From a virus, in IMG/VR virus record IMGVR_UViG_3300029419_000277: a stretch of 64,000 nt of DNA; one strand, written 5' to 3'. This document shows positions 911-33,016 of this stretch, one piece after another. The position numbers and the translations under genes were made by a program. Positions within the stretch are counted from its first letter, which is position 1; the number at the start of each line of letters is the position of its first letter. The notes below the pieces were generated by a model. That model searched no databases. It saw only the letters and a list, made by a program, of their open reading frames with translations, and was not told the DNA's origin.

Positions 911-1603
911 TTAATCAAGCCCGGTGTCGGGGACGGTCTTACCCGTCAGCATCCCCACTGATACATAGCCATCCATTTGCTTAACTTCAGATTCTTTCAG
1001 ATGTTCTTCTACAGGTACGCCAAAAGTACCTGCAATATCATCTGGGTAAAATCCCTTTCTGGTATTTGCAGGCTTTGTCTCTTGCGCATTTTTCTGGTCT
1101 GTTTCATTTTTTCGCTTCTGGCCTTCATGGAAGATCTCCGGCACAAGCAGGTCAAAAACATACAGAGTTTCCCCTTCAAATGAAATTCTGTATCCAAGCA
1201 TCTTATACCGGCATTCGGTATCCCAGCCCATTTCCTTATACACCAGTTCTGAAAAAGGCTTGCAGGTCATCTTCCGGCTTTTACGTTTATCTGGCTTGGC
1301 GATGCACCAGCGCAGAGCGTCCTTGTCGTTTTCATCACAGCCGCGTACAACAATACGCTTCAAATCACTGTTGAACATGACGTGTACATAAACCACATCT
1401 TCCAGCCCGGTGATGCAGGCCGTGTTAAATGTGATGCTGTCCTTGCGGATCACGATCGCGGGGTCACGGAGATGTGCAAACAGCTCCTTCCGCACGACCT
1501 GGTATCCATCATAGGAAAATGTACTTTCTAATTCTTCCGCTCTTGCGTCTCTATCATTTTCTGCCTGCTCTTCCGGTGGCATGGCGTTCGTATTTTCATT
1601 CAT
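911..1603 (-). CDS. stand-alone paralog of the C-terminal domain of the adjacent large serine recombinase (230 aa)
   Basis: About 170 aa align by eye with the C-terminal region of the 1596..3428 product (GYQVVRKELFAHLRDPAIVI..FNTACI..EDVVYV vs GYEVVRAQYFATLQNPAMTI..FNTACL..EDVEYV; terminal YPDDIAGTFGVPV vs FPPEWAGTFGKPI). Start overlaps the upstream recombinase stop (1596-1603), suggesting one operon. Confidence 0.6.
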   Translation of the reverse strand: MNENTNAMPPEEQAENDRDARAEELESTFSYDGYQVVRKELFAHLRDPAIVIRKDSITFNTACITGLEDVVYVHVMFNSDLKRIVVRGCDENDKDALRWCIAKPDKRKSRKMTCKPFSELVYKEMGWDTECRYKMLGYRISFEGETLYVFDLLVPEIFHEGQKRKNETDQKNAQETKPANTRKGFYPDDIAGTFGVPVEEHLKESEVKQMDGYVSVGMLTGKTVPDTGLD

Positions 1604-3428
1604 CTGTGTCAGTCCATCCTTCCATTATTTTTTCCGCTTCATGGAGCAGAGCATTCAGGCCATCTGCGGTAAAAGTATTCATTTCTTCTATCTCTGCTGC
1701 CGGCCGGAGCACATCCCAGTTTCCTGCATAATGTTCCAGCTGCAAAATGCCAACCTGTGCAATACTTGTGATCGGTTTTCCAAAAGTACCTGCCCATTCT
1801 GGCGGGAAGATATAGATCGTCTGCTTGACGGTTTTTCCCTCTTCATCCTGTTCCTTGGATGGCAGGACAATTTCTTCCACCTTAACCATTTCCGGCTCAT
1901 CCAGTTCAAACAGCATCAGCTTGTCATCGTTCTGTCCCACGAGCTGCCCACGGAAACGGTATTTCAAACCTTCTTCCCATTCCATCATGTCAAAAAGGGC
2001 TTTTGCCAGACCGCGGCATCCGAGTGTACTGGCGCACCAGCGTCCCTCTTTCAGTCTGCCCCAGCGGATTGCGTTCGGATTATCCTTTTCGCATGGGCGA
2101 ATGGCAATGCAGCGGTCAACCGAATTCAGGAGCAGTTCTACATACTCCACATCTTCAAACTTTTTCAGGCAGGCTGTATTAAAACGCAACTTGCCATTGG
2201 AGATCGTCATAGCCGGATTCTGTAAAGTAGCAAAATACTGTGCCCGCACAACTTCATATCCGCTGAGGTCTAAACGGTTCATGACTTCTACCGTATCCTG
2301 CTGTTTTTCCCGCATGACGCTTTCAGATGCTTCCCGGTATTCTTCTGCCGAAAAGCCGGTCCAGTCCTTATCAAAAGGCACATATCCGCGTAAGATTCCA
2401 TCATCCACCACACTCAGGACTGGCAGTGGGCGATTTTTCTTTGTATAACTCCGGGATGCCCGCAGATGATTTGCCGCATTATAGACTTCCCTGGACACGA
2501 TTGCCTCATGATGATCTCTCTGCCGGTACTGCGTCCGGTCGTTATTGTTTTTCTTTGATTTATGCGTCAGGAAATTCGGTGTGAAGGTCTTCCTTGCCAA
2601 TACATCCCCACAATGGCGTTCATTAGCAATGACACCTGCAAGAGTGCCGGGATTCCACTCCGTATTCCCCAGTTTTGTCTTCCGGCCATATTCTGTCAGG
2701 AGTTCTGCAATCTCGGTGAATGAAAATCCATTCAGGTACAGATAGTAAATCACCTTTACCGTCTGTGCTTCGTCCTGATTCACCACAAGGCTGCCATCCT
2801 CGTCCTGGTCATATCCGAGCAGGGCCGGCGTAAGGAACAGTCCACGGCTGAACCTGCGGTCAATGGACCAGTTCATAATGATAGACTTGGAATGAGATTC
2901 TTCCTCTGCCACGGATGCCAAAATCGTCAGGATCATGCGCCCGTTACTGTCCAGTGTGTAGATGTTGTCCGCTTCAAATTTTACACCCACGGGCGGGTCA
3001 AGATTTTTCAGTGTTTCAATGACGGAAAGGCAGTCTACAATGTTTCTGGCGAATCGGGCGATGGACTTTGTGAGGATCAGGTCAATCTTTCCGGCCTTAC
3101 AGTCCTCGATCAGCTGTTGCATTCCTTTACGATGCTCCAATGATGTACCGCTGATGCCTTCATCATCATAGATTCCAACGAATTCCCATCCCGGCTGTGC
3201 CTTGATATAATCCGTGTAATAATTTTTCTGAAGTTCATACGAAGAAGTCTGTTCATCATTATCAGTGGAAACACGGACATATGCGGCAACACGACGGATA
3301 GAGGTGCTTTCTCCAAGCCCCTCCACAGTTTTTGCCGGGATAACTTCCAACTCAGAAGTATCCACGCCTTTATATCTGTCTCTGATTCTCTGCTTGCGGT
3401 CTGCCGCCTCTGCTCCACTGCTTATCAT
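1596..3428 (-). CDS. large serine recombinase (integrase) 1
   Basis: Resolvase/invertase-type N-terminal catalytic domain (RVAAYVRVSTDNDEQ...SYELQ, ...LILTKSIARFARN) followed by a long recombinase and zinc-ribbon-type C-terminal region; 610 aa. Confidence 0.9.
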   Translation of the reverse strand: MISSGAEAADRKQRIRDRYKGVDTSELEVIPAKTVEGLGESTSIRRVAAYVRVSTDNDEQTSSYELQKNYYTDYIKAQPGWEFVGIYDDEGISGTSLEHRKGMQQLIEDCKAGKIDLILTKSIARFARNIVDCLSVIETLKNLDPPVGVKFEADNIYTLDSNGRMILTILASVAEEESHSKSIIMNWSIDRRFSRGLFLTPALLGYDQDEDGSLVVNQDEAQTVKVIYYLYLNGFSFTEIAELLTEYGRKTKLGNTEWNPGTLAGVIANERHCGDVLARKTFTPNFLTHKSKKNNNDRTQYRQRDHHEAIVSREVYNAANHLRASRSYTKKNRPLPVLSVVDDGILRGYVPFDKDWTGFSAEEYREASESVMREKQQDTVEVMNRLDLSGYEVVRAQYFATLQNPAMTISNGKLRFNTACLKKFEDVEYVELLLNSVDRCIAIRPCEKDNPNAIRWGRLKEGRWCASTLGCRGLAKALFDMMEWEEGLKYRFRGQLVGQNDDKLMLFELDEPEMVKVEEIVLPSKEQDEEGKTVKQTIYIFPPEWAGTFGKPITSIAQVGILQLEHYAGNWDVLRPAAEIEEMNTFTADGLNALLHEAEKIMEGWTDTDE

Positions 3429-4668: not shown

Positions 4669-5010
4669 ATGGCATTAGATTATACTGCACTTGGAAAGCG
4701 TATCAGCACTTTCCGTAACGCATCCGGATTAACTCAGGAACAATTTTGCGAAAAATTGAATGTATCTCGCAAACACATCAGTCAGATTGAAGCGGCAATC
4801 AGCCGCCCCAGCCTTGAAACTCTGGTCGACATTGCTAATATTCTTAACATCTCAGCAGATGATCTTCTTGTAGACAGTTTGGCGCACTCCGCGTCCACTG
4901 CCGATTCCGAGATCCACCGTCTGCTTTTAGACTGTAATGCAATTGAGCAGGAGATTCTCACCCGGATGGTAAAGGAGATGAAAGCAATTTTATACGGCTT
5001 AGGAGTTTGA
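4669..5010 (+). CDS. XRE-family helix-turn-helix transcriptional regulator
   Basis: HTH_XRE signature LGKRISTFRNASGLTQEQFCEKLNVSRKHISQIE; 113 aa; strong RBS. Confidence 0.85.
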   Translation: MALDYTALGKRISTFRNASGLTQEQFCEKLNVSRKHISQIEAAISRPSLETLVDIANILNISADDLLVDSLAHSASTADSEIHRLLLDCNAIEQEILTRMVKEMKAILYGLGV

Positions 5011-23942: not shown

Positions 23943-26900
23943 TTACTTGAAGACCGAATCATCCTCGTGGATCATGCCGTTGATCTTATCGGCAACGGTC
24001 TGTGCGAGTTCATCATCGTTCCGGGCATTGTAGCCGTTGACCGTGATATATACGCCACCAAGGTTGGTCGTCCGGGTGGTACCGCCTCCGGCCAGAGCCG
24101 CCTGCGGGAAGTTCCAGCCAGAGCCATCGAAGTGCGGCAGGGTCAGTTCCGGCAGACTGAAGGAACTGATGCCCTCCATACCCTGCTGCACCTTTGCTGC
24201 CATCGACCTGATCTGGCTGATTAGTCCGCCCTCGCCTTTCTTGATGCCGCCGGAAAGCAGCTTCATAAAGTCTGGCATATAGGTGTCCGCATCTGCCAGA
24301 GGTCCTTCATCCGGCACAGAGAAGTGCAGGAACGAACGGATACCGCTTGCCACACTCTTGACCGCACTGCCGACCCAGCTCACACCCTTTTTGATGCCTC
24401 CTGCAATACCGCCAACGATATCCTTGCCCCAGCTGACTGCCGAGGAAGCCACGTTCTTGATACCGCCCCAGATGGACGATGCCACGTTGCCGATGGCAGA
24501 AGCCGCATTGGAGATACCGTTCTTGATGGCATTTACTCCATTCGAGAATACCGAAGTGACCTTGTTCCAGATATTCGTGACTCCTTCCCGGAAGCCATCG
24601 CAGTTTTTCCAGAGAGCGGTCAGTCCAAGACCGATGCCGCCAACGGCTGCCACTGCGATACCTGCAGGACCCGCCAGGCCAGCAAGTGCTGTGCCTGCGG
24701 ATGCGAGGAAACCACCTGCGGAGCTTGCTACGCCTGCAAGAGCCGTACCCGCACCTGCCGCCAGACCAGATACGGCCGTGCCAACCGAGCCGAACAGTCC
24801 TGCGATTGCGGAGCCGGCAGAACCAGCAATTCCGCCCAATGTGGAACCCACACCAGACAGAAGCCCAGAAAGACTGCCGCCTAAGCCACCGATCTTCGTC
24901 ACTACACCGGAAAGCAGCCCGCCCAGATTCGACAGGATTCCCCCACCGCTGGAGCTAAGGCTTCCCAGCTTCGAGATAATGCCAGTGATGCCTTCTCCGA
25001 GGCCGCCCATCTTGGAAGTCAACCCGGAGATCAGGTTGCCAAAGTTCGACACGATCTGACCGCCATCTGCACTGCCGATTTTCGACAGGAAACTGCCGAT
25101 GTTGGACAGCAGGCCGCCGCCGTTCTCTGTGCCGAGAACATTGCCGAGGTTCTGCATCGTACTTCCAAGGTTTCCGATGGTGTTCTTCATGGAACCGAGC
25201 TTGTCCACAAGCCCCGTGACCGTATTGACCGTGTCACCGACCTTGCTGATGCCGTTGCCGAGGCTCTTTAAGAAATCCGAGTTGAAGGTATCGCCAAGGC
25301 TGCGGATCGCATTCCCAAGGGAACTGGTCTGAGAACTCAGCTCTCCGATGGATGTTTTCATATCCGCAAAGCCCTGCTTCACCTCATCGCTCATATTTCC
25401 GACAGCGGCTTTTGTAATCCCCTGCAGGTCCGTCCAGAGCTGCTGGAACTGGGTCTTCACCCCGGAAAGCCCGGACATCAGCTGAGACTGGATACCGCTT
25501 CCCACATCCCTTGCAGCACTACCGATACCGCTCTGACTTTTCTTGATCGTAGTAGCAAAACTGCCGACCACGGAATCCATCCAGTCGCCCAGAGAATCTA
25601 CCGGGGTCGTAAGGTTGTTGCTCATAGACCCGGCAAGTCCCTGCACGGCTTTCACCACCGACTTGACATTTTTTTTAATGCCGGTCGCCAGCAGCTTCAT
25701 GAAGTCGGGCATATAGGTATCTGCATCAGACAGAGGTCCTTCATCTGGTACAGAGAAATGCAGCAGACTTCTGACCCTGCTTGCGACATTTTCCGCCGCT
25801 GCGATCACGGAACCGGCCGCTGCCCGGACACCTGCCGCCATCTGGGAACAGATATCTGCGCCCCAGCGGTATGCAGAAGAAGCAATCGAACCGAGCGAGT
25901 TAAAACTGCTCCTGATACTTGCAACACCGGAAGAAACCGTGCTGCGCAGGCTGGACATTGCCGAAGACACCGTGGACTTGATGCTGTTGAAGGCAGAGGT
26001 CGTGGTGGATTTCAGTGTGTTCCAGCCGCTTGTGGCCGTACTGCGAACTGCGGATACAGAGGAAGTTGTAAGACTCTTGATGCTGTTCCATGCAGTCGTG
26101 ATGACCGTCTTGATACCATTCCAGCTGGTGTTCGTCAGAGTTTTCACTGCGTTCCATGCGCTTGTCATGGAAGATTTGACAGAAGCAGTTGCCGAAGTAG
26201 TCAGAGACTTGATTCCATTCCATGCTGTGGTGATAACACTCTTGATACCGTTCCAGCTGGTCGTTGTCAGCGACTTTACCGCACTCCATGCACTGGTCAT
26301 GGAAGATTTGACAGCTGCTGTCGCAGAGGTCACATTGGATTTCACCGCCGCAAAGCTGGTCTGGATGGTGGTCTTGATGCTGTTCCATGTGCTCGTGGTA
26401 CTGGTTGTAATGGAACTCCATGCGGATCTCATCGCGGCACTCACACCTGCCGTTCCGGTCTTCACCGTCTGGCTGATGGCCGCCCAGCTCTTACTGTATG
26501 CCTGCTCCACTCCCCTCATGGAGTTGGTGATGGAAGTAGACAGCGTGGTGGACAGATTCTCTGCCGCCGCAGTTACAAGGCTGGTGTTGGTCGTGATGCC
26601 GTTTGCCAGTCCCTGCATGAAGTCCGGCATCCAGCTTTCCATATCTGCCAGAGGCCCCTCATCCGGCACAGAGAAGTGCAGGAAAGAGCGGATACGGTCC
26701 GCCACTCCCGATACGGCGCTTGCCACATCCTGAATCCTCGACTGGATACCGGACACAATGTTGCCGATCATGTCCGAGCCCCACGAGAATGCCTGTCCAG
26801 CCAGACCCTTGATAAAGGAAACTGCACTGTTAAAGCCGTTCGTGATGGTGGACTTAATACCGGAAATGGTAGAGGAAATCCCGGATTTCATCGAGTTAAA

Positions 26901-29852
26901 AGCTGTGGTCGCCGCGCTCTTGATGCTGTTACTGAGGGACGAAACCGTAGACTTCATGGCATTCCAGCCGGAAGAAACCACCGATTTGATACCATTTACC
27001 ACACCGGAGATTTTGCTGCTGATGGCGCTCCAGATGGAAGAAACCGTGGACTGGATTGCTGAAAGGACAGTCGAAATGACCGTCTTGATTGCATTCCATG
27101 CCGTACTCATCCGGGTCTGAATGCCAGTCAGCAGCGGAGACAGGAACGATACAATAGCGTTCCATACAGTTGTCACCGCGGTCTGGATTGCAGTTAGCAC
27201 CGTAGATATGGCTGTCTGGATCGCGGACCAAACCGTAGAGAAAGTCGTCTGCAATCCAGTCAGGATCGGAGTCACAAAGGCGACGATGGCGTTCCAGATG
27301 GAAGTGATCTTCGTCTGGATCGCAGTCAGTGCTGCACCGATCAGGATCTGAATTGCCTGCCAGATGGTTTCAAACAGATATTTGAACGCATCCAACAGAG
27401 GTTTCATGGTGTTGTAGATGCCATTCCACACCGAAGTGATCGTCGTGCTGATGGTGTTCATGACCGTAGAAATCGCAGTCGAGATCGCCGTCCACACAGT
27501 TGTCACCGTGGTATGGATCGTATTCAACACAGAAGAAACGGCTGTGGAAATGGCAGTCCAGATGGTGCTGAAGGTCGTCTGGATACTCGTAAGGACAGTC
27601 GTAAAGAAGCTCGAAACTGCAGTGAACACAGTCGTTGCCACACTCTGGATAGCAGAAACTGTGTTTGAAAAGAAGCTGCTGATTCCGCTCCACACGGTCT
27701 CAAAGAAGCTCTTGATACTGTCCCAGACCGTCTGCCAGTCTGTCCCAAACAGACCGAGGAACACATCCAGTGCGCTCTTTAGTGCGGTAAGCGTCGTGGA
27801 GAATACAGACTTCACACCTTCCCAGATGCTGGCGAAGATTTCCTTTACCGCTTTCCATGCACCGCTCCAATTGCCGGAGAACACATTGGAAAAGACATCG
27901 AACAGACCGAGCAGCGTATCCAGAACCGTACTCAATACCGTAGCCATAATCTGGAATGCTCCCTCGAACAGCGGTGCAAGCACCTGACAGAAGCCATCCC
28001 AGACGGCTTTCAGTACCTCAGTGACATCCTTAAAATCAAAGCCCAGCCCGTTGATCCGCTGTGTCAGCTGGTCGCAGAAGCCTTTCACCTTGGAAACAAT
28101 GTCGTTCCAGATGCCGGTAATGGCAGTGCGGAACTCCTCGTTGGTGTTCCAGAGGTTCATGAACGCCGCCACCAGCGTACCGATGACCGCCACCACTGCT
28201 ACGACCGGCCCGGACAGACCACCCAGAACCACACCCAGCTTGCTGAACACACCGCTGGCACTGCCCACATGGGTGATGAGAAGCCGGACACCCTTTGCAA
28301 GAGAACTGAATCCCCGCATCGCTGTGCCGACGGTCGATATGGTCTTGCCCAGCACAATAAGCAACGGACCAATGGATGCCGCCAGAAGTCCGATCTTGAT
28401 GATCGTTTCCCTGGTGCTTTCATCCATGCTGTTCAGCTTGTCCACGAACTGCTGCACGGCAGATACGATCTTGCGGATGGTGGGCATCAGGATATCGCCA
28501 AAAGAAATAGCCAGCTCCTCCAGCTGAGATTTCAGGATGGTAAGCTGACCATTTAAATTGTCCTGCATGGTTTCTGCCATGCTCTCGGATGCGCCGTCAC
28601 AATTTTCAATGGCACCACGCAGTTTGTTGATGTCCGTCTCGCTGGAATTCATCAGGGCAAGGAAACCGGACATCGCATTCTTGCCGACCAGTGCCTCTGC
28701 ATTGGATGCTTTTTCAGATTCGGTCAAGCCGGAGAATGCTACACGGCAGTCTGCGAGGATATCGTTCAGGCTCCTCATACTGCCATCTGCATTGCTGGTG
28801 GCAATCGTAACCTCACCGATGTTCTTGCCTGCAAAGGTCACTTCACCGGAAAGGTTGTTCATGATGGTACGAAGGGACGTACCAGCCTGCGAAGCCTTGA
28901 TACCACTATTTGCCATAAGTCCGATGGCTTCTGCGGTATCCTCTGCCGAGAACCCCAGCGCACCGGCAATAGGCGCACAGTACTTGAACGTCTCGCCCAT
29001 CATGGAGACGTTGGTGTTCGCATTGGAGGAAGCGGCTGCGAGGATATCGGCAAAATGCCCAGAATCCGCAGCGGATAAGCCGAACGCGGTAAGGGCATCG
29101 GTAACAATATCTGAAGTCGTAGCGAGGTCTTCACCCGAAGCGGCCGCGAGGTTCATGACGCCCTCGATGCCGTTCAGCATGTCAGAAGTCTTCCATCCGG
29201 CCATGGCCATGTATTCCATCGCCGAAGCTGCCTCGGATGCAGAGAACTTGGTCTTTGCACCCATCTCACGGGCTTTCGCACGGAGCTGGTCAAAGTCATC
29301 CCCGGTCGCACCGGAAATGGCAGAGACCTTACTCATCTCGGAATCAAAATCGGCTGCGGTCTTCACTGCGGCAGTGCCAAGACCCGTCACAGCGGCAGTC
29401 ACCGGAAGGAACTTCTTGCCTACATTCTCCACAGAAGATCCGATGTTCTGGAGCTTTTCTCCAGCTTCATCGATCTTGGCAAGCGTCGCATTGGTAGTAG
29501 CCGCCTGATCCTGTAAGGATCGCAGATTCTGTTCGGTCTCCACGATCTCACGCTGAAGAGCATCGTACTGCTGCTGGGTGATCTCACCGTTGGCAAGCTG
29601 CTCATTAGCCTGCTGTGCGGCAGTTTTCAAAGTTGCCAGCTTTTCCTTAGTGGCTTCAATGGCATCCTTCAGCATCTTCTGCTTCTGGACGACCAGTTCT
29701 GTATTGGAAGGGTCCAGTTTCAGGAGTTTGTTGACATCCTTCAGTCCGGACTGCGTCCCCTTGATTGATTTGTTTACACTTTCCAGTGCTTTGGAGAGCT
29801 TTGTGGTATCGCCGCCGATCTCAACGGTGATGCCCTGGATTCTGGATGCCAT
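23943..29852 (-). CDS. tail tape measure protein (TP901 family), 1969 aa
   Basis: TP901-type tape-measure core (FDSEMSKVSAISGATGDDFDQLRAKAREMGAKTKFSASEAASAMEYMAMAGW); start assigned to MASRIQGITVEIGGDTTKL at 29852 because GAGGAGGTG lies 9 nt upstream (the ORF track begins at a GTG at 29897); huge low-complexity T/S/A-rich repeat region; three copies of an HFSVPDEGPL..D..YMPDFM motif. Confidence 0.85.
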   Translation of the reverse strand: MASRIQGITVEIGGDTTKLSKALESVNKSIKGTQSGLKDVNKLLKLDPSNTELVVQKQKMLKDAIEATKEKLATLKTAAQQANEQLANGEITQQQYDALQREIVETEQNLRSLQDQAATTNATLAKIDEAGEKLQNIGSSVENVGKKFLPVTAAVTGLGTAAVKTAADFDSEMSKVSAISGATGDDFDQLRAKAREMGAKTKFSASEAASAMEYMAMAGWKTSDMLNGIEGVMNLAAASGEDLATTSDIVTDALTAFGLSAADSGHFADILAAASSNANTNVSMMGETFKYCAPIAGALGFSAEDTAEAIGLMANSGIKASQAGTSLRTIMNNLSGEVTFAGKNIGEVTIATSNADGSMRSLNDILADCRVAFSGLTESEKASNAEALVGKNAMSGFLALMNSSETDINKLRGAIENCDGASESMAETMQDNLNGQLTILKSQLEELAISFGDILMPTIRKIVSAVQQFVDKLNSMDESTRETIIKIGLLAASIGPLLIVLGKTISTVGTAMRGFSSLAKGVRLLITHVGSASGVFSKLGVVLGGLSGPVVAVVAVIGTLVAAFMNLWNTNEEFRTAITGIWNDIVSKVKGFCDQLTQRINGLGFDFKDVTEVLKAVWDGFCQVLAPLFEGAFQIMATVLSTVLDTLLGLFDVFSNVFSGNWSGAWKAVKEIFASIWEGVKSVFSTTLTALKSALDVFLGLFGTDWQTVWDSIKSFFETVWSGISSFFSNTVSAIQSVATTVFTAVSSFFTTVLTSIQTTFSTIWTAISTAVSSVLNTIHTTVTTVWTAISTAISTVMNTISTTITSVWNGIYNTMKPLLDAFKYLFETIWQAIQILIGAALTAIQTKITSIWNAIVAFVTPILTGLQTTFSTVWSAIQTAISTVLTAIQTAVTTVWNAIVSFLSPLLTGIQTRMSTAWNAIKTVISTVLSAIQSTVSSIWSAISSKISGVVNGIKSVVSSGWNAMKSTVSSLSNSIKSAATTAFNSMKSGISSTISGIKSTITNGFNSAVSFIKGLAGQAFSWGSDMIGNIVSGIQSRIQDVASAVSGVADRIRSFLHFSVPDEGPLADMESWMPDFMQGLANGITTNTSLVTAAAENLSTTLSTSITNSMRGVEQAYSKSWAAISQTVKTGTAGVSAAMRSAWSSITTSTTSTWNSIKTTIQTSFAAVKSNVTSATAAVKSSMTSAWSAVKSLTTTSWNGIKSVITTAWNGIKSLTTSATASVKSSMTSAWNAVKTLTNTSWNGIKTVITTAWNSIKSLTTSSVSAVRSTATSGWNTLKSTTTSAFNSIKSTVSSAMSSLRSTVSSGVASIRSSFNSLGSIASSAYRWGADICSQMAAGVRAAAGSVIAAAENVASRVRSLLHFSVPDEGPLSDADTYMPDFMKLLATGIKKNVKSVVKAVQGLAGSMSNNLTTPVDSLGDWMDSVVGSFATTIKKSQSGIGSAARDVGSGIQSQLMSGLSGVKTQFQQLWTDLQGITKAAVGNMSDEVKQGFADMKTSIGELSSQTSSLGNAIRSLGDTFNSDFLKSLGNGISKVGDTVNTVTGLVDKLGSMKNTIGNLGSTMQNLGNVLGTENGGGLLSNIGSFLSKIGSADGGQIVSNFGNLISGLTSKMGGLGEGITGIISKLGSLSSSGGGILSNLGGLLSGVVTKIGGLGGSLSGLLSGVGSTLGGIAGSAGSAIAGLFGSVGTAVSGLAAGAGTALAGVASSAGGFLASAGTALAGLAGPAGIAVAAVGGIGLGLTALWKNCDGFREGVTNIWNKVTSVFSNGVNAIKNGISNAASAIGNVASSIWGGIKNVASSAVSWGKDIVGGIAGGIKKGVSWVGSAVKSVASGIRSFLHFSVPDEGPLADADTYMPDFMKLLSGGIKKGEGGLISQIRSMAAKVQQGMEGISSFSLPELTLPHFDGSGWNFPQAALAGGGTTRTTNLGGVYITVNGYNARNDDELAQTVADKINGMIHEDDSVFK

Positions 29853-29995
29853 TTGCGTAACCACCTCCTCGCAGGCATGAAAAAAGCCCATCTGCACGAA
29901 GCAGACAGGCTAAAGGAAAAAATGCTATTAGCTGTGTATCAAAGTCATCCTTTCAGCATACAATATATTTATCAGTAAATTTATCGACTAACCGG

Positions 29996-30024
29996 TTGAT
30001 ATTTTTGCAAACGTGTGCTATAAT
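29996..30024 (+). promoter_or_regulatory. consensus-like sigma70 promoter (TTGATA-17-TATAAT) for the toxin-antitoxin operon
   Basis: -35 TTGATA at 29996-30001, 17-nt spacer, -10 TATAAT at 30019-30024; AGGAG at 30037-30041; ATG at 30051. Confidence 0.6.
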
Positions 30025-30050
30025 GCAATCAAAGAAAGGAGTTGACGATT

Positions 30051-30374
30051 ATGGCTTCTGTTATGAGTGCTATTACCAACACTGTTCCAATCACCCAATT
30101 CAACCGTGGTCTTGCCGGAAAAATATTTGAAGATGTCAAGCAGTGCGGTGCCAAGGTTGTTATGAAAAACAATGCTGCCGAATGCGTTCTCATCTCCCCG
30201 GACGAATATGTCCGTTTAATGGATGAATTAAATGATGCTCGTCTGCTGGCTGTTGCTTCTGAACGTATGGCACACTTTGATCCCACCTCTTTGATTTCTG
30301 AGGAAGAAATGAACCGCCGTCTCGGTGTTACAGAAGACGATCTCGCCGGTTTTGACGAGGTAGAAATCGAATGA
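30051..30374 (+). CDS. type II antitoxin, Phd/YefM family
   Basis: 107 aa from ATG 30051 (the TTG at 30042 in the ORF track is too close to the RBS); Phd/YefM-like fold signature; 4-nt ATGA overlap with the downstream toxin. Confidence 0.8.
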   Translation: MASVMSAITNTVPITQFNRGLAGKIFEDVKQCGAKVVMKNNAAECVLISPDEYVRLMDELNDARLLAVASERMAHFDPTSLISEEEMNRRLGVTEDDLAGFDEVEIE

Positions 30375-30706
30375 GCTGGAAAGTTGAATACCTCCCTGAA
30401 GCAGAAAAAGACCTCAAAGGTTTAGATGGTAGCCAGCGCAATCTTGTTCTGAAAGCCATCAAAAAAGTTCAGCAAAATCCACTGCCTGTTGATGAACAGG
30501 GCTACGGCAAACCGCTCGGCAATCACAACAGCACTAACCTTGCAGGACTTCTGAAAATCAAACTCCGCTCTGCGGGTCTGCGCATTGTCTATCAGCTTCG
30601 ACGTACTGAGACATCTATGATGATTATTGTCATTGGAGTCCGTGCTGATGAAGAAGTGTACGAACTTGCCCAGAAGAGAGTTCTGAAGCACGAAAAGTCC
30701 GATTGA
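30371..30706 (+). CDS. type II toxin, RelE/ParE family
   Basis: 111 aa; RelE/ParE-like motifs (..LLKIKLRSAGLRIVYQL...MMIIVIGVRADEEVY); translationally coupled to the antitoxin. Confidence 0.8.
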   Translation: MSWKVEYLPEAEKDLKGLDGSQRNLVLKAIKKVQQNPLPVDEQGYGKPLGNHNSTNLAGLLKIKLRSAGLRIVYQLRRTETSMMIIVIGVRADEEVYELAQKRVLKHEKSD

Positions 30707-30805
30707 CTTTTTCTGCCTAATCGACTATACTTTGATGATGATCAGGTTTCGGTAACCTTGCGAGGTCCGAGACCGGGAAGATGACCTTCGGGCCACCTTC
30801 TTTCT

Positions 30806-30836
30806 CCCCCAGTTGTGCACGGCTGGGGGATTTTTT
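30806..30836 (+). terminator. rho-independent terminator after the TA operon
   Basis: CCCCCAG (30806-30812) / CTGGGGG (30823-30829) stem followed by TTTTTT (30831-30836). Confidence 0.6.
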
Positions 30837-30903
30837 ATACCCATTGCCAGACGATTGTGCTTATTTCATTCACAATATAAGCACGTTCGTCTGTTTTTTC
30901 GCC

Positions 30904-31445
30904 TTAGAACCGGTCAAAGTCCTCCTGCGATGCCAGTTCCTTATACGGATACTCGTCGTTCTGCCGCTCCGTAAACATATCATTGACCAACCCGATGGTC
31001 AGCAGGTCGAGGTCGGCGATGCTGATACCGAGCTGTACACAGCGCAGCAGAAAGAGCGGGGTGGTCATTTCCCGCTCACTTTTTCGAGGTTTTTTCTGGA
31101 TTCCACCTCCGTCTGCACGTTCAGACCCCACAGTTCGATCAGCTGGGGCAGGATCTGGTAGATGGAGAAGGTGTTGAACTGGTCCAGAAACTCCTCCGGG
31201 CTGTCCGGCACCTTTGCCGGGTCCGCATGACGAGCCATCAGCCATGCCAGGTCCTCGAACATCTCCAGACTGAACAGGTCGAGGTTGGAATTGTCCTCAT
31301 CGTTCTCCCCCACGCTCTTTTCCAGCTGGCGCAGGTCTTTATAAATGTCACGGCCAAACTTGATGCGGTACAGGCGCGGCACGGCGGCACTTGCCTTAAA
31401 AGTGACTTCCTTGCCATCGATCTCGATTTTCTTCGTAACTGCCAT
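30904..31445 (-). CDS. tail assembly chaperone GT fusion produced by programmed -1 frameshift
   Basis: The -1 frame ORF 30904..31245 overlaps the 3' end of G; slippery heptamers A_AAA_AAC (plus 31089-31095) and G_AAA_AAG (plus 31079-31085) lie just before the G stop. The -1 frame reads ..QKKPRKSEREMTTPLFLL.., continuing the ORF. Confidence 0.5.
31065..31445 (-). CDS. tail assembly chaperone (gpG-like)
   Basis: 126 aa from ATG 31445 (GGAGG 8 nt upstream; the ORF-track Met at 31469 lacks an RBS); acidic protein immediately upstream of the tape-measure region. Confidence 0.7.
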   Translation of the reverse strand: MAVTKKIEIDGKEVTFKASAAVPRLYRIKFGRDIYKDLRQLEKSVGENDEDNSNLDLFSLEMFEDLAWLMARHADPAKVPDSPEEFLDQFNTFSIYQILPQLIELWGLNVQTEVESRKNLEKVSGK

Positions 31446-31477
31446 AATCGTAATCCTCCAAAATTTCATGTAAAATT

Positions 31478-31511: not shown

Positions 31512-32342
31512 TTACTCTGCCGGGTCAATGCTCACCAGTGCATTACCGCCGCTCACAGTAGGCAGCTTACCATCCCACTTCTGGATCTTCTGGTACTCGA
31601 TCAGCGTATCGGACAGGCTTTCTGCCAGTTTGCGGTTTGCCTCTGCCTGTGCTTCTGCGGCAATGGAAGTCTTCTGGGCTTCCGCCTCTGCATTGGTGAT
31701 TGCCACCTGCTTATCCGCTTCTGCCTTGGCAATGGCGGCTTCATTCTCGATCTTCTGCTTATCTGCATTCTGCTGTGCAATGGACTTCTGCTGGATGGCT
31801 TCGTTATAAGCATCCTCGAAATTCATGTCGTTGATGACGACCTTGTTCACAAACACAACGTCCTCACCATATTTCTGCACAAGGGATTCTGCCAGCTTCT
31901 GTTGTGCCAGAGGCTCAATCTTGGTGCGGTTTGTCACCTCATTGGGGCCAAGTTCAGCCATCGCAGACTTGATGGCAGATGCCACCAGCTCATCACCAAC
32001 CAGATTCTTGATGTCGGACACATTCGCATACAGCCATGCACTCTTCTCAGGAAGCACCTGATAGGTCACGATCACATCAGCGGCATACACAGGGGTCTTG
32101 TCGGAGGCTTCGCCCCAGACCTGCGCTTCGATGTGCTTATCCTGCTGCTTGTTGTTGACCTTGTGGATGCTCTGCACAAAGGGAATGCAGAAGTTGAGCT
32201 TGCCGCTCTGAATGGTGGTTTTCTGGATCTGACCGAAGCTGGTCTTCACGCCCGTGTAACCGGTGGGGATGATGTGGAACGAGCAGACAGCCAGCACCAG
32301 AACGATGATCACTGCGAACAAAGGAAAAAACTTCTTCATAAT
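31512..32342 (-). CDS. SPFH/band-7 (stomatin/prohibitin/HflK-C-like) membrane protein
   Basis: 276 aa from ATG 32342 (AAGAGG RBS); N-terminal TM helix (MKKFFPLFAVIIVLVLAV) then IIPTGYTGVKTSFGQI... SPFH core and Ala/Glu/Gln-rich coiled-coil tail; the upstream ORF-track extension lacks an RBS. Confidence 0.8.
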   Translation of the reverse strand: MMKKFFPLFAVIIVLVLAVCSFHIIPTGYTGVKTSFGQIQKTTIQSGKLNFCIPFVQSIHKVNNKQQDKHIEAQVWGEASDKTPVYAADVIVTYQVLPEKSAWLYANVSDIKNLVGDELVASAIKSAMAELGPNEVTNRTKIEPLAQQKLAESLVQKYGEDVVFVNKVVINDMNFEDAYNEAIQQKSIAQQNADKQKIENEAAIAKAEADKQVAITNAEAEAQKTSIAAEAQAEANRKLAESLSDTLIEYQKIQKWDGKLPTVSGGNALVSIDPAE

Positions 32343-32367
32343 CGTATACCTCTTTATAATAATGTAA

Positions 32368-32385
32368 GCAGAGCCGAAGCCCTGC
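32368..32385 (-). promoter_or_regulatory. UUCG-tetraloop hairpin (copy 2) between the major tail gene and the SPFH gene
   Basis: gcagagccgaagccctgc, identical core to 31478-31497; lies 17 nt after the major tail protein stop. Confidence 0.55.
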
Positions 32386-32401: not shown

Positions 32402-33016
32402 TTAGCCCTGCGGCTCCTCGGTGTGACTGGTGTCTTCGGTGTCCACAGCTTCTGCCTGCGGCTCGTAGACCGCATCGTACCATTTGTTATAGACATCATC
32501 GGTGGTGTTAGTACCGGTCTTTGCCTTGACATAACCGTTTGCCAGAGGGGTTGCCTGCAGGTTCAGAGTGTCCGTCTTGACTTCCTTACTGTCCTCATTG
32601 GTCTCACCCTCGATGGACGGACGGCTTGCCACACAGTTGTACAGCACATGACGGATGTGGCGCTGGTCGCCATCGAACTCAAACAGGAAGGCGAAATGCT
32701 CCAGTTCCACATTGGCGTTCTCAGCAAGCACGCCGTTGCCATCCAGCTCCTCGTGCATGATGTCCGTGAGGAAGCTCTCCGGGATCAGTGCGATTTCCAG
32801 ATCACCCTCGTAGCCGGAGTTGTTATTCACGACATAGTAGGCGATATTGTCCGCATAAAACGGCTCGATCTCGCCATTGGCATCCATCGAAAGACTGACT
32901 GCACCGGGGATGCGGACCGGCTTCGCATAGGTGACACTGCCATCTTCGTCAAAGGTCGCCTTTGCATAATGGCAGTTTTTCAGGCCAAATTTGACCTTAT
33001 TGCTTTTCTTCGACAT
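32402..33016 (-). CDS. major tail protein (TP901-1/phi13-like family)
   Basis: 204 aa; MSKKSNKVKFGLKNCHYAKATFDEDG... typical N-terminus of this major tail family; position between tail completion genes and chaperones. Confidence 0.75.
   Translation of the reverse strand: MSKKSNKVKFGLKNCHYAKATFDEDGSVTYAKPVRIPGAVSLSMDANGEIEPFYADNIAYYVVNNNSGYEGDLEIALIPESFLTDIMHEELDGNGVLAENANVELEHFAFLFEFDGDQRHIRHVLYNCVASRPSIEGETNEDSKEVKTDTLNLQATPLANGYVKAKTGTNTTDDVYNKWYDAVYEPQAEAVDTEDTSHTEEPQG

Follow-up and report, generated by a model that had tools for sequence, protein, structure and literature searches.

The window analysed here is a 64,000-nucleotide (nt) stretch of the IMG/VR virus record IMGVR_UViG_3300029419_000277, and the element in question is a type II toxin-antitoxin (TA) operon located between its tail chaperone genes (G and T) and its tape measure gene. 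In the open reading frame (ORF) listing, the minus strand carries almost all of the window's long ORFs, and the 1054 bp from the T stop codon to the tape measure start, referred to below as the slot, hold the only plus-strand genes of the region. The initial annotation had described a complete, self-promoted TA operon on the opposite strand, separating the G/GT chaperone genes from the tape measure gene, and this layout was borne out. The cassette would comprise two transcription units opposite the tail genes, namely the TA operon and a structured small RNA of ~95 nt. The slot and its anchor genes contain the following features:

23943..29852, minus strand: tape measure gene (ORF; 1969 amino acids (aa) from the ATG at 29852), left anchor of the slot
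29885..29911, minus strand: backbone terminator-like hairpin followed by U6 (terminator scan), just before the ribosome-binding site of the tape measure gene, marking the left end of the slot
29996..30024, plus strand: TA operon promoter TTGATA-17-TATAAT with a TG extension (TGcTATAAT) (promoter scan, 11/12 consensus matches)
30051..30374, plus strand: antitoxin gene, 107 aa (ATG at 30051, TGA at 30374; ribosome-binding site AAAGGAG at 30037-30043)
30371..30706, plus strand: toxin gene, 111 aa (ATG at 30371, TGA at 30706)
30703..30731, plus strand: small RNA promoter TTGACT-17-TATACT (promoter scan), overlapping the toxin stop codon
~30739..30836, plus strand: candidate small RNA of ~95-100 nt with three hairpins (folding and covariation)
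30805..30830, plus strand: hairpin with a T-run, the last hairpin of the small RNA (terminator scan)
30848..30899, plus strand: second terminator, a long hairpin followed by U6 (CAGACGA..GTGCTTAT-N12-ATAAGCAC..TCGTCTG), adjoining the T stop codon and marking the right end of the slot
30904..31245, minus strand: chaperone extension T (ORF), in the -1 frame relative to G, part of the right anchor
31065..31469, minus strand: chaperone gene G (ORF), part of the right anchor

The antitoxin gene lies upstream of the toxin gene in the same direction, the two genes overlap by ATGA at 30371-30374, and a single promoter precedes the pair; both the ATGA coupling and the TTGATA-17-TATAAT promoter had been proposed earlier. 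The -35 hexamer, TGnTATAAT, and the AGAAAGGAG ribosome-binding site were kept across divergent phage and chromosomal alleles, with drifting spacers. An operator search around the TA promoter gave trivial 6-nt palindromes only. In both TA genes, non-synonymous substitutions amounted to 0.02-0.12 per site versus near-saturated synonymous ones (0.45-0.8), and the ratio of non-synonymous to synonymous substitution rates (dN/dS) was ~0.02-0.12 (antitoxin, ~0.02-0.12; toxin, ~0.03-0.06). These values indicate that the TA module is alive and under strong purifying selection. Decayed remnants of the slot do exist in some contigs (L199, L057, and L006) and might suggest that the cassette, too, is decaying or is carried along without effect; this is scarcely credible for a module with two intact ORFs, such low dN/dS values, a conserved promoter and ribosome-binding site, and copies encoding 100% identical TA proteins in dozens of contigs.

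Thousands of homologues are known for the TA proteins. The hidden Markov model (HMM) searches supported the proposed assignment of the toxin to RelE/ParE and narrowed it to RelE. The toxin scored 23.1 bits against Pfam PF05016 (ParE_toxin; cut-off 23), a model that spans the whole RelE/ParE superfamily, and matched PHROG_1213 'RelE-like toxin' with E=1.1e-8. Its sole NCBIfam match, a weak one, was RelE_StbE, and the JGI names of its homologues were RelE/StbE. The top match among PDB sequences was E. coli RelE, including the ribosome-bound entries 4V7J/4V7K (E=1.6e-5 with the single sequence and 1e-6 with a profile). All five catalytic residues of RelE (K52, K54, R61, R81, and Y87) aligned to toxin residues K62, K64, R71, R91, and Y97 (5/5). 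In 14 toxin homologues, K62, R91, and Y97 were invariant, R71 was conserved in at least 90%, and K64 was the majority residue but not invariant. The AlphaFold2 (AF2) model of the toxin reached a predicted local distance difference test (pLDDT) value of 83.8. The top nine Foldseek hits with this model were all RelE toxins (E=4e-5 to 8e-4), the leading structures being 2kc8, 4fxh, 2khe, and Mycobacterium tuberculosis RelE1/2, and 4v7j was matched with template modelling (TM) scores of 0.70/0.81. ParE and HigB ranked lower in the fold comparison, with ParE 6xrw in 19th place (E=0.033). Because both sequence and fold matched RelE first, the five catalytic residues aligned, and ParE ranked lower, the toxin is a predicted RelE-type mRNA interferase rather than a ParE gyrase poison. 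The name of the best Pfam model, ParE_toxin, which the toxin reached only at the cut-off, could be taken to favor a ParE-type gyrase poison over a RelE-type RNase; with this model being superfamily-wide, and with RelE_StbE as the sole NCBIfam match and as the name given to homologues by JGI, this alternative is highly improbable.

The antitoxin is probably Phd/YefM-like. It matched PHROG_2268 'antitoxin' (E=6.7e-8), and one of its 2413 homologues, at 87% identity, is named a Phd/YefM antitoxin by NCBI; precomputed PF02604 hits and the NCBI name 'Phd/YefM family antitoxin' were found among the 85-91% identical homologues. The N-terminal antitoxin residues 10-66 aligned to the PF02604 profile of the YefM-YoeB/Phd-Doc family, and the predicted strand-helix-strand-strand-helix order fits this family as well. 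Support for the proposed Phd/YefM identity is weak, with the PHROG match and the homologue annotations on one side and a Pfam score under the cut-off, considered below, on the other. That Phd/YefM antitoxins and RelE-superfamily toxins combine in mixed pairs is already known. The system resembles E. coli RelBE (4V7J/4V7K, 4FXE) in the toxin fold, the aligned catalytic residues, the antitoxin gene being first, and the translational coupling. It differs in that the toxin is only ~25% identical to E. coli RelE overall and carries 16 extra residues, the antitoxin is weakly Phd/YefM-like and not RelB-like, and the pair resides in a prophage moron rather than in the chromosome.

The initial annotation also held that the G/GT and tape measure genes are normally adjacent, and the comparison with relatives lacking the insert agreed with this: the T stop and the tape measure start are 79 bp apart in the empty locus L055 and 17 bp apart in the Ca. 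Heliusvirales phage NatCom_42228 (L001). The G+C content of the insert is 40-48% versus 51-57% in the flanks. Since empty relatives exist, the cassette has its own promoter and terminators by sequence evidence, and its G+C content deviates from that of its neighbors, the ~1-kb interval is a true insertion with the three moron traits of the Hendrix/Juhala definition. When empty and filled alleles were compared, neither a target-site duplication nor flanking direct repeats were detected; site-specific insertion of the cassette was rejected on these grounds, and gain by homologous recombination via the conserved flanks would be the simpler model.

The location had been regarded as a striking one, which was not borne out. 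It is not unusual, because the first-named moron, HK97 gene 15, reportedly treated by Juhala et al. 2000 and Cumby et al. 2012, occupies the same place, and in the present phages the slot is a general cargo hotspot. The moron concept was originally defined at HK97 gene 15, whose expression from the prophage benefits the host (PMC3594210). The cassette resembles this gene in position, in forming a separate unit of transcription that has a promoter and a terminator to itself, and in deviating composition (PMC3594210). HK97 gp15 is a single small inner-membrane superinfection-exclusion protein of an E. coli lambdoid phage, whereas a two-gene RelE-type TA operon plus a small RNA lies here on the opposite strand of a Clostridia phage; unlike in the HK97 account, the site is documented here as multi-allelic, with a dozen or more types of cargo.

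The variability of the slot was assessed in 80 IMG/VR loci encoding a G protein with 96-100% identity to that of the window, with the cargo classified by clustering, Pfam, and PADLOC. The tape measure N-terminus was 95-100% identical in these loci (over the N-terminal 150 aa, across relatives with differing cargo), yet the length of the T-to-tape-measure interval varied between 79 and 3447 bp. Backbones with 96-100% identical G carried 10 or more unrelated classes of cargo. The most frequent one comprised DUF3791/DUF3990 cassettes (PADLOC candidate PDC-M13; 19/80 loci), followed by AbiD/Abi_2 (12/80), the RelE/Phd pair (12/80), AbiEi/AbiEii (8/80), and ATPase_2+DUF234 (PDC-S27; 7/80). Rarer cargo included a DUF6036 nucleotidyltransferase with a helix-turn-helix (HTH) protein and an AbiEi-like protein (3/80), ParE/Phd with an AbiEi-like protein (2/80, one with a group II intron), RelB/YoeB (1/80), Fic (SoFic; 1/80), and an AbiEi-like protein alone (1/80). 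No cargo was detected in 14/80 loci, one of which is demonstrably empty and the others of which are early-ending contigs or rearranged. Even with 100% identical G and tape measure N-terminus, the cargo differed: ParE with the intron in L015, AbiD in L016, DUF3990 in L017, and RelE in L018. Among the alternative cargo, PADLOC recognized AbiD, AbiEi/AbiEii, SoFic, PDC-S27, and PDC-M13, and Pfam recognized YoeB/RelB, ParE/Phd, Fic, and Abi_2. The NatCom Heliusvirales phages (65-71% nucleotide identity) were equally variable at this place, with nothing, an opposite-strand HNH_2 protein, a GNAT acetyltransferase, or unknowns; by span arithmetic, ~6/17 of the NatCom hits are empty and 11/17 filled. 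It is very probable that the cassette is a RelE-type TA moron in a multi-allelic hotspot.

By its variable content, the slot is a cargo hotspot of prophages like those of P2 and P4. Small high-turnover loci between two conserved genes have been described as prophage 'hotspots of antiviral systems' (Rousset et al. 2022, PMC9122126). The slot shares with the P2/P4 hotspots the small size (~1-5 kb), the high turnover between conserved genes, the abortive-infection and TA-type cargo, and the occurrence of unrelated cargo on near-identical backbones (PMC9122126). The P2/P4 hotspots adjoin cos or the lysogeny end, whereas the slot lies within the tail morphogenesis operon, and they have no described outward flanking terminators or companion small RNA. 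The anti-phage activity of P2/P4 cargo was shown by experiment (PMC9122126), whereas the cargo here is known from sequence alone. The hotspot was not mentioned in the description of Heliusvirales (PMC11283538), in 2026 preprints on these phages, or in the other literature searched.

Several loci carry composite or decayed forms of the slot. In L123, a compound slot of 4096 bp (tape measure start to T stop) holds AbiD, the RelE/Phd TA pair, a duplicated fragment comprising the G 3' end with T, and then Fic, which suggests that cassettes accumulate through recombination at the T-side flank. The 3447-bp interval of L015 has a group II intron reverse transcriptase (429 aa) adjoining the ParE/Phd and AbiEi-like cassette. 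In L025 (interval 1203..1559, window orientation), the last ORF of a long DUF3990 cassette bears the C-terminal 29 aa of a Phd-like antitoxin, and in L081 (interval 1285..1620, window orientation) the last ORF of another long DUF3990 cassette bears the C-terminal tail of RelB, which is the antitoxin in the YoeB cassette. No toxin gene follows either tail, and the homology ends exactly at the stop codon; these tails are either recombination scars or orphan toxin-binding tails. Two long bacterial contigs contain remnants: in L199 (9578..10025) a decayed tape measure 5' fragment is fused to the cassette end and the small RNA, and in L006 (4740..6605) truncated tape measure pieces lie beside an intact TA pair, followed by host genes. 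Hotspot cargo can thus outlive the prophage, as the L199 and L006 remnants illustrate.

The function of the cassette may be pictured as follows. In a lysogen, the late tail operon would be silent, and the consensus promoter would yield antitoxin and toxin; the antitoxin would neutralize RelE and probably repress its own promoter. The supply of antitoxin would fail when a superinfecting phage shuts off host transcription or when the prophage is lost. Freed RelE would then cut A-site mRNA on the ribosome and stop translation, resulting in aborted infection or in the death of cured cells. Lysogen expression, toxicity, and the defence or addiction role are what we infer here from the DNA sequence, and a lysogen-expressed RelE-type TA moron with an abortive-infection or addiction role is the probable nature of the cassette. 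For an anti-phage role specifically, the chances appear evenly balanced.

Addiction is the classical role of type II TA systems on mobile elements, for example P1 phd-doc. The cassette could accordingly be a pure addiction module that kills cells losing the prophage and has no role against other phages, and this would agree with the lack of a PADLOC defence model for the RelE/Phd pair and with a TA divergence that tracks the flanks in some sublineages, suggesting stable co-inheritance. Near-identical phages, however, mostly hold recognized abortive-infection systems in the slot (AbiD, AbiE, and SoFic), and the frequent swap for unrelated cassettes argues that the TA does not lock in place; pure addiction is therefore possible but rather unlikely. 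The defence and addiction roles are compatible and not mutually exclusive.

A number of findings weigh against a RelE-type TA moron with a defensive role in a rapidly exchanging slot. The antitoxin scored 22.1 bits against Pfam PF02604 (Phd/YefM), under the cut-off of 29.8, one point of difference from the YefM-YoeB and Phd-Doc systems. Against PDB sequences nothing was found with the single antitoxin sequence, and the profile found YefM only at E=0.46; the antitoxin AF2 model, built from a 13-sequence alignment, was poor (pLDDT 55.8), and Foldseek gave nothing meaningful against the PDB. The RelE/Phd pair matched none of the PADLOC defence models, and its defence role is argued by association with the other slot alleles. 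Across sublineages with ~80% identical flanks, the TA nucleotide divergence (81-88%) was similar to or above that of the flanks, which fits long residence as well as frequent exchange; recent horizontal TA transfer between sublineages is not supported by these values. Nor is the TA pair phage-specific, because an 87% homologue occurs in an ordinary chromosomal context next to tuf. This chromosomal pair (L007-L014, 6001..6656) has the same promoter layout, with the antitoxin 87% and the toxin 78-80% identical, and belongs to a Ruminococcaceae metagenome-assembled genome, in a housekeeping neighborhood of pyrB/pyrI, cupin, and GyrI-like genes and then tuf. From these sequences, the TA family appears to move between chromosomes and phages.

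The slot is bounded by two hairpins. The left one (29911..29885; folding energy -18.4 kcal/mol, z=-4.9) was found with nearly every class of cargo and also in L055, whose slot is empty; for this reason it is assigned to the phage backbone and not to the TA cassette. Its conservation implies that transcription from the chaperone genes towards the tape measure gene is subject either to antitermination or to deliberate attenuation. Late transcription would have to pass this hairpin by antitermination or because the hairpin is leaky. The right one (30848..30899; -22.1 kcal/mol, z=-7.4) was kept beside the T gene in most filled alleles and was not present in the empty one. Plus-strand cassettes end in tandem terminators, the 30805-30830 hairpin and then 30848..30899, neither of which has a U-run on the minus-strand side. 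The two tandem terminators would keep cassette transcripts out of G/T antisense, and the minus-strand hairpin before the tape measure gene would do the same for relatives with oppositely pointing cargo. The slot would in this way be insulated, and lysogenic transcription should stop before the structural genes with either cargo orientation.

The TA terminator had been placed at 30806-30836. A hairpin with a T-run does exist there (30805..30830); it forms, however, the end of a separate, probable small RNA gene that has a second promoter in front of it. Because no other terminator follows the toxin gene, the TA transcript probably ends at the small RNA terminator as well. The hexamers of the small RNA promoter and their 17-nt spacing were kept, with varying spacer sequence, in 26 variants after three unrelated cassettes. 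The small RNA fold had a minimum free energy of -43.9 kcal/mol (z=-3.8). In 28 distinct variants, 99.1% of pair cells were standard pairs and five pairs changed on both sides; the covariation score was reached by 0/500 shuffles, and slid controls paired only 35-65%. The ~100-nt region recurred with 82-100% identity after RelE/Phd, a subset of the DUF3990 cassettes, and Fic, and was not found in many slot alleles. At gathering thresholds, Rfam 15 gave no match in the whole window, and a permissive search of 29800-31000 gave only weak terminator-like hits. By pattern scan, the small RNA was detected in 42 viral contigs, 4 species-representative genomes (two Blautia, Faecalibacterium prausnitzii, and Brotaphodocola catenula), and at least 113 metagenome contigs; wherever the flanks were readable among the matches listed, it was located at the slot or in decayed slot remnants. 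A coding reading of the region (plus-strand ORF 30781..31161 or a 41-aa minus-strand ORF) was rejected, since neither ORF is conserved: indels in the C-run change the reading frame, and variants lack the start codon. Folding and covariation together make it likely that 30739..30836 is a small RNA with a gene of its own and a candidate new family.

The small RNA is fully antisense to the late tail transcript. A duplex scan of the small RNA against 56 gene starts in the window was diffuse and non-specific, with the tape measure start ranking 9th, and the 9 bp that CCACCUUCU can form with the ribosome-binding site of the tape measure gene were discounted as evidence, this being generic anti-Shine-Dalgarno complementarity. 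The perfect complementarity of both the TA mRNA and the small RNA to the late transcript crossing the slot, and the terminator-like hairpin before the tape measure ribosome-binding site, could be read as regulation of the phage tail genes, in which convergent transcription or the antisense small RNA modulates read-through from G/T to the tape measure gene. The same hairpin, however, occurs whichever way the cargo points and also where the slot is empty, hundreds of relatives tolerate inserts of 0.8-4.1 kb, co-oriented genes included, and the small RNA lacks both a specific target in the duplex scan and a presence in many alleles. Such regulation is very unlikely, and the influence on tape measure read-through that the initial annotation had considered was not supported. 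Returning to the slot as a whole, it is doubtful that it represents a purpose-built, terminator-insulated docking bay for lysogen-expressed toxin-type cargo with the small RNA as a functional regulator. If it did, the small RNA might suppress any leakage of tail or tape measure expression in lysogens or trigger late-mRNA processing on induction, or it might be a common RNA-level controller of the neighboring toxins (RelE, DUF3990, and Fic).

The genes around the slot identify its setting. The N-terminal 617 aa of the tape measure protein matched tape measure families in PHROG (E=1e-174). The protein contains three copies of the motif R-S-(F/L)-LHFSVPDEGPL(A/S)D...MPDFM with long Ser/Thr/Ala-rich repeats between them, and the three copies within its 1969 aa indicate putative internal duplications. 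G and T are placed between the tail tube gene and the tape measure gene, and a slippery heptamer A_AAA_AAC at 31095..31089 gives -1 frame access from G to T; their PHROG matches were PHROG_709 and PHROG_3033, both annotated as unknown function. Further features of the window are:

31512..32369, minus strand: gene for an SPFH/Band_7 membrane protein (PHROG_200 'lipoprotein'), inserted with the tail tube gene on one side and G on the other
32402..33016, minus strand: tail tube gene (Pfam PF06488)
1596..3428, minus strand: large serine recombinase, near the left end of the window
4669..5010, plus strand: Cro/CI-type HTH gene, near the left end of the window

The SPFH/Band_7 gene was present in 80/80 close relatives and missing from the NatCom Heliusvirales phages, whose tail tube gene directly adjoins G; by this distribution it looks like a second, fixed moron of the tail operon. 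The serine recombinase and the Cro/CI-type HTH gene are consistent with the lysogeny module of an integrated prophage. Integrated copies were found in Blautia, Faecalibacterium, and Brotaphodocola genomes, and the recombinase and these copies in isolate genomes point to a temperate lifestyle. The nearest deposited relatives are Ca. Heliusvirales phages (65-71% nucleotide identity), and the nearest isolate match is a Blautia prophage. Blautia sp. BIOML-A1 (NZ_WWVR01000001) has the present slot allele, its TA proteins being 100% identical. The host phage of the cassette is a temperate gut-Clostridia phage.

The TA pair is an ordinary type II TA, moron, and prophage hotspot cargo, all of kinds already known; PHROG already has a 'moron' family of RelE-like toxins, and the site of insertion is the textbook one. 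What is added here is a multi-allelic hotspot of defence-type cargo, situated within the tail operon of a gut phage group that is very widespread, together with the terminator-bracketed architecture of the slot and a candidate new small RNA formerly taken for an operon terminator. The order Ca. Heliusvirales has been reported in ~95% of human gut metagenomes. Flanked by strongly conserved anchors, the slot rotates at least a dozen Abi- and TA-type cassettes, including the poorly characterized DUF3791/DUF3990 (PDC-M13), ATPase_2/DUF234 (PDC-S27), and DUF6036 and several unknowns. Its anchor genes offer a cheap handle, even on short metagenomic contigs, for mining the defence systems of hard-to-culture gut Clostridia, and the slot is also useful for studying phage-phage competition in these bacteria.

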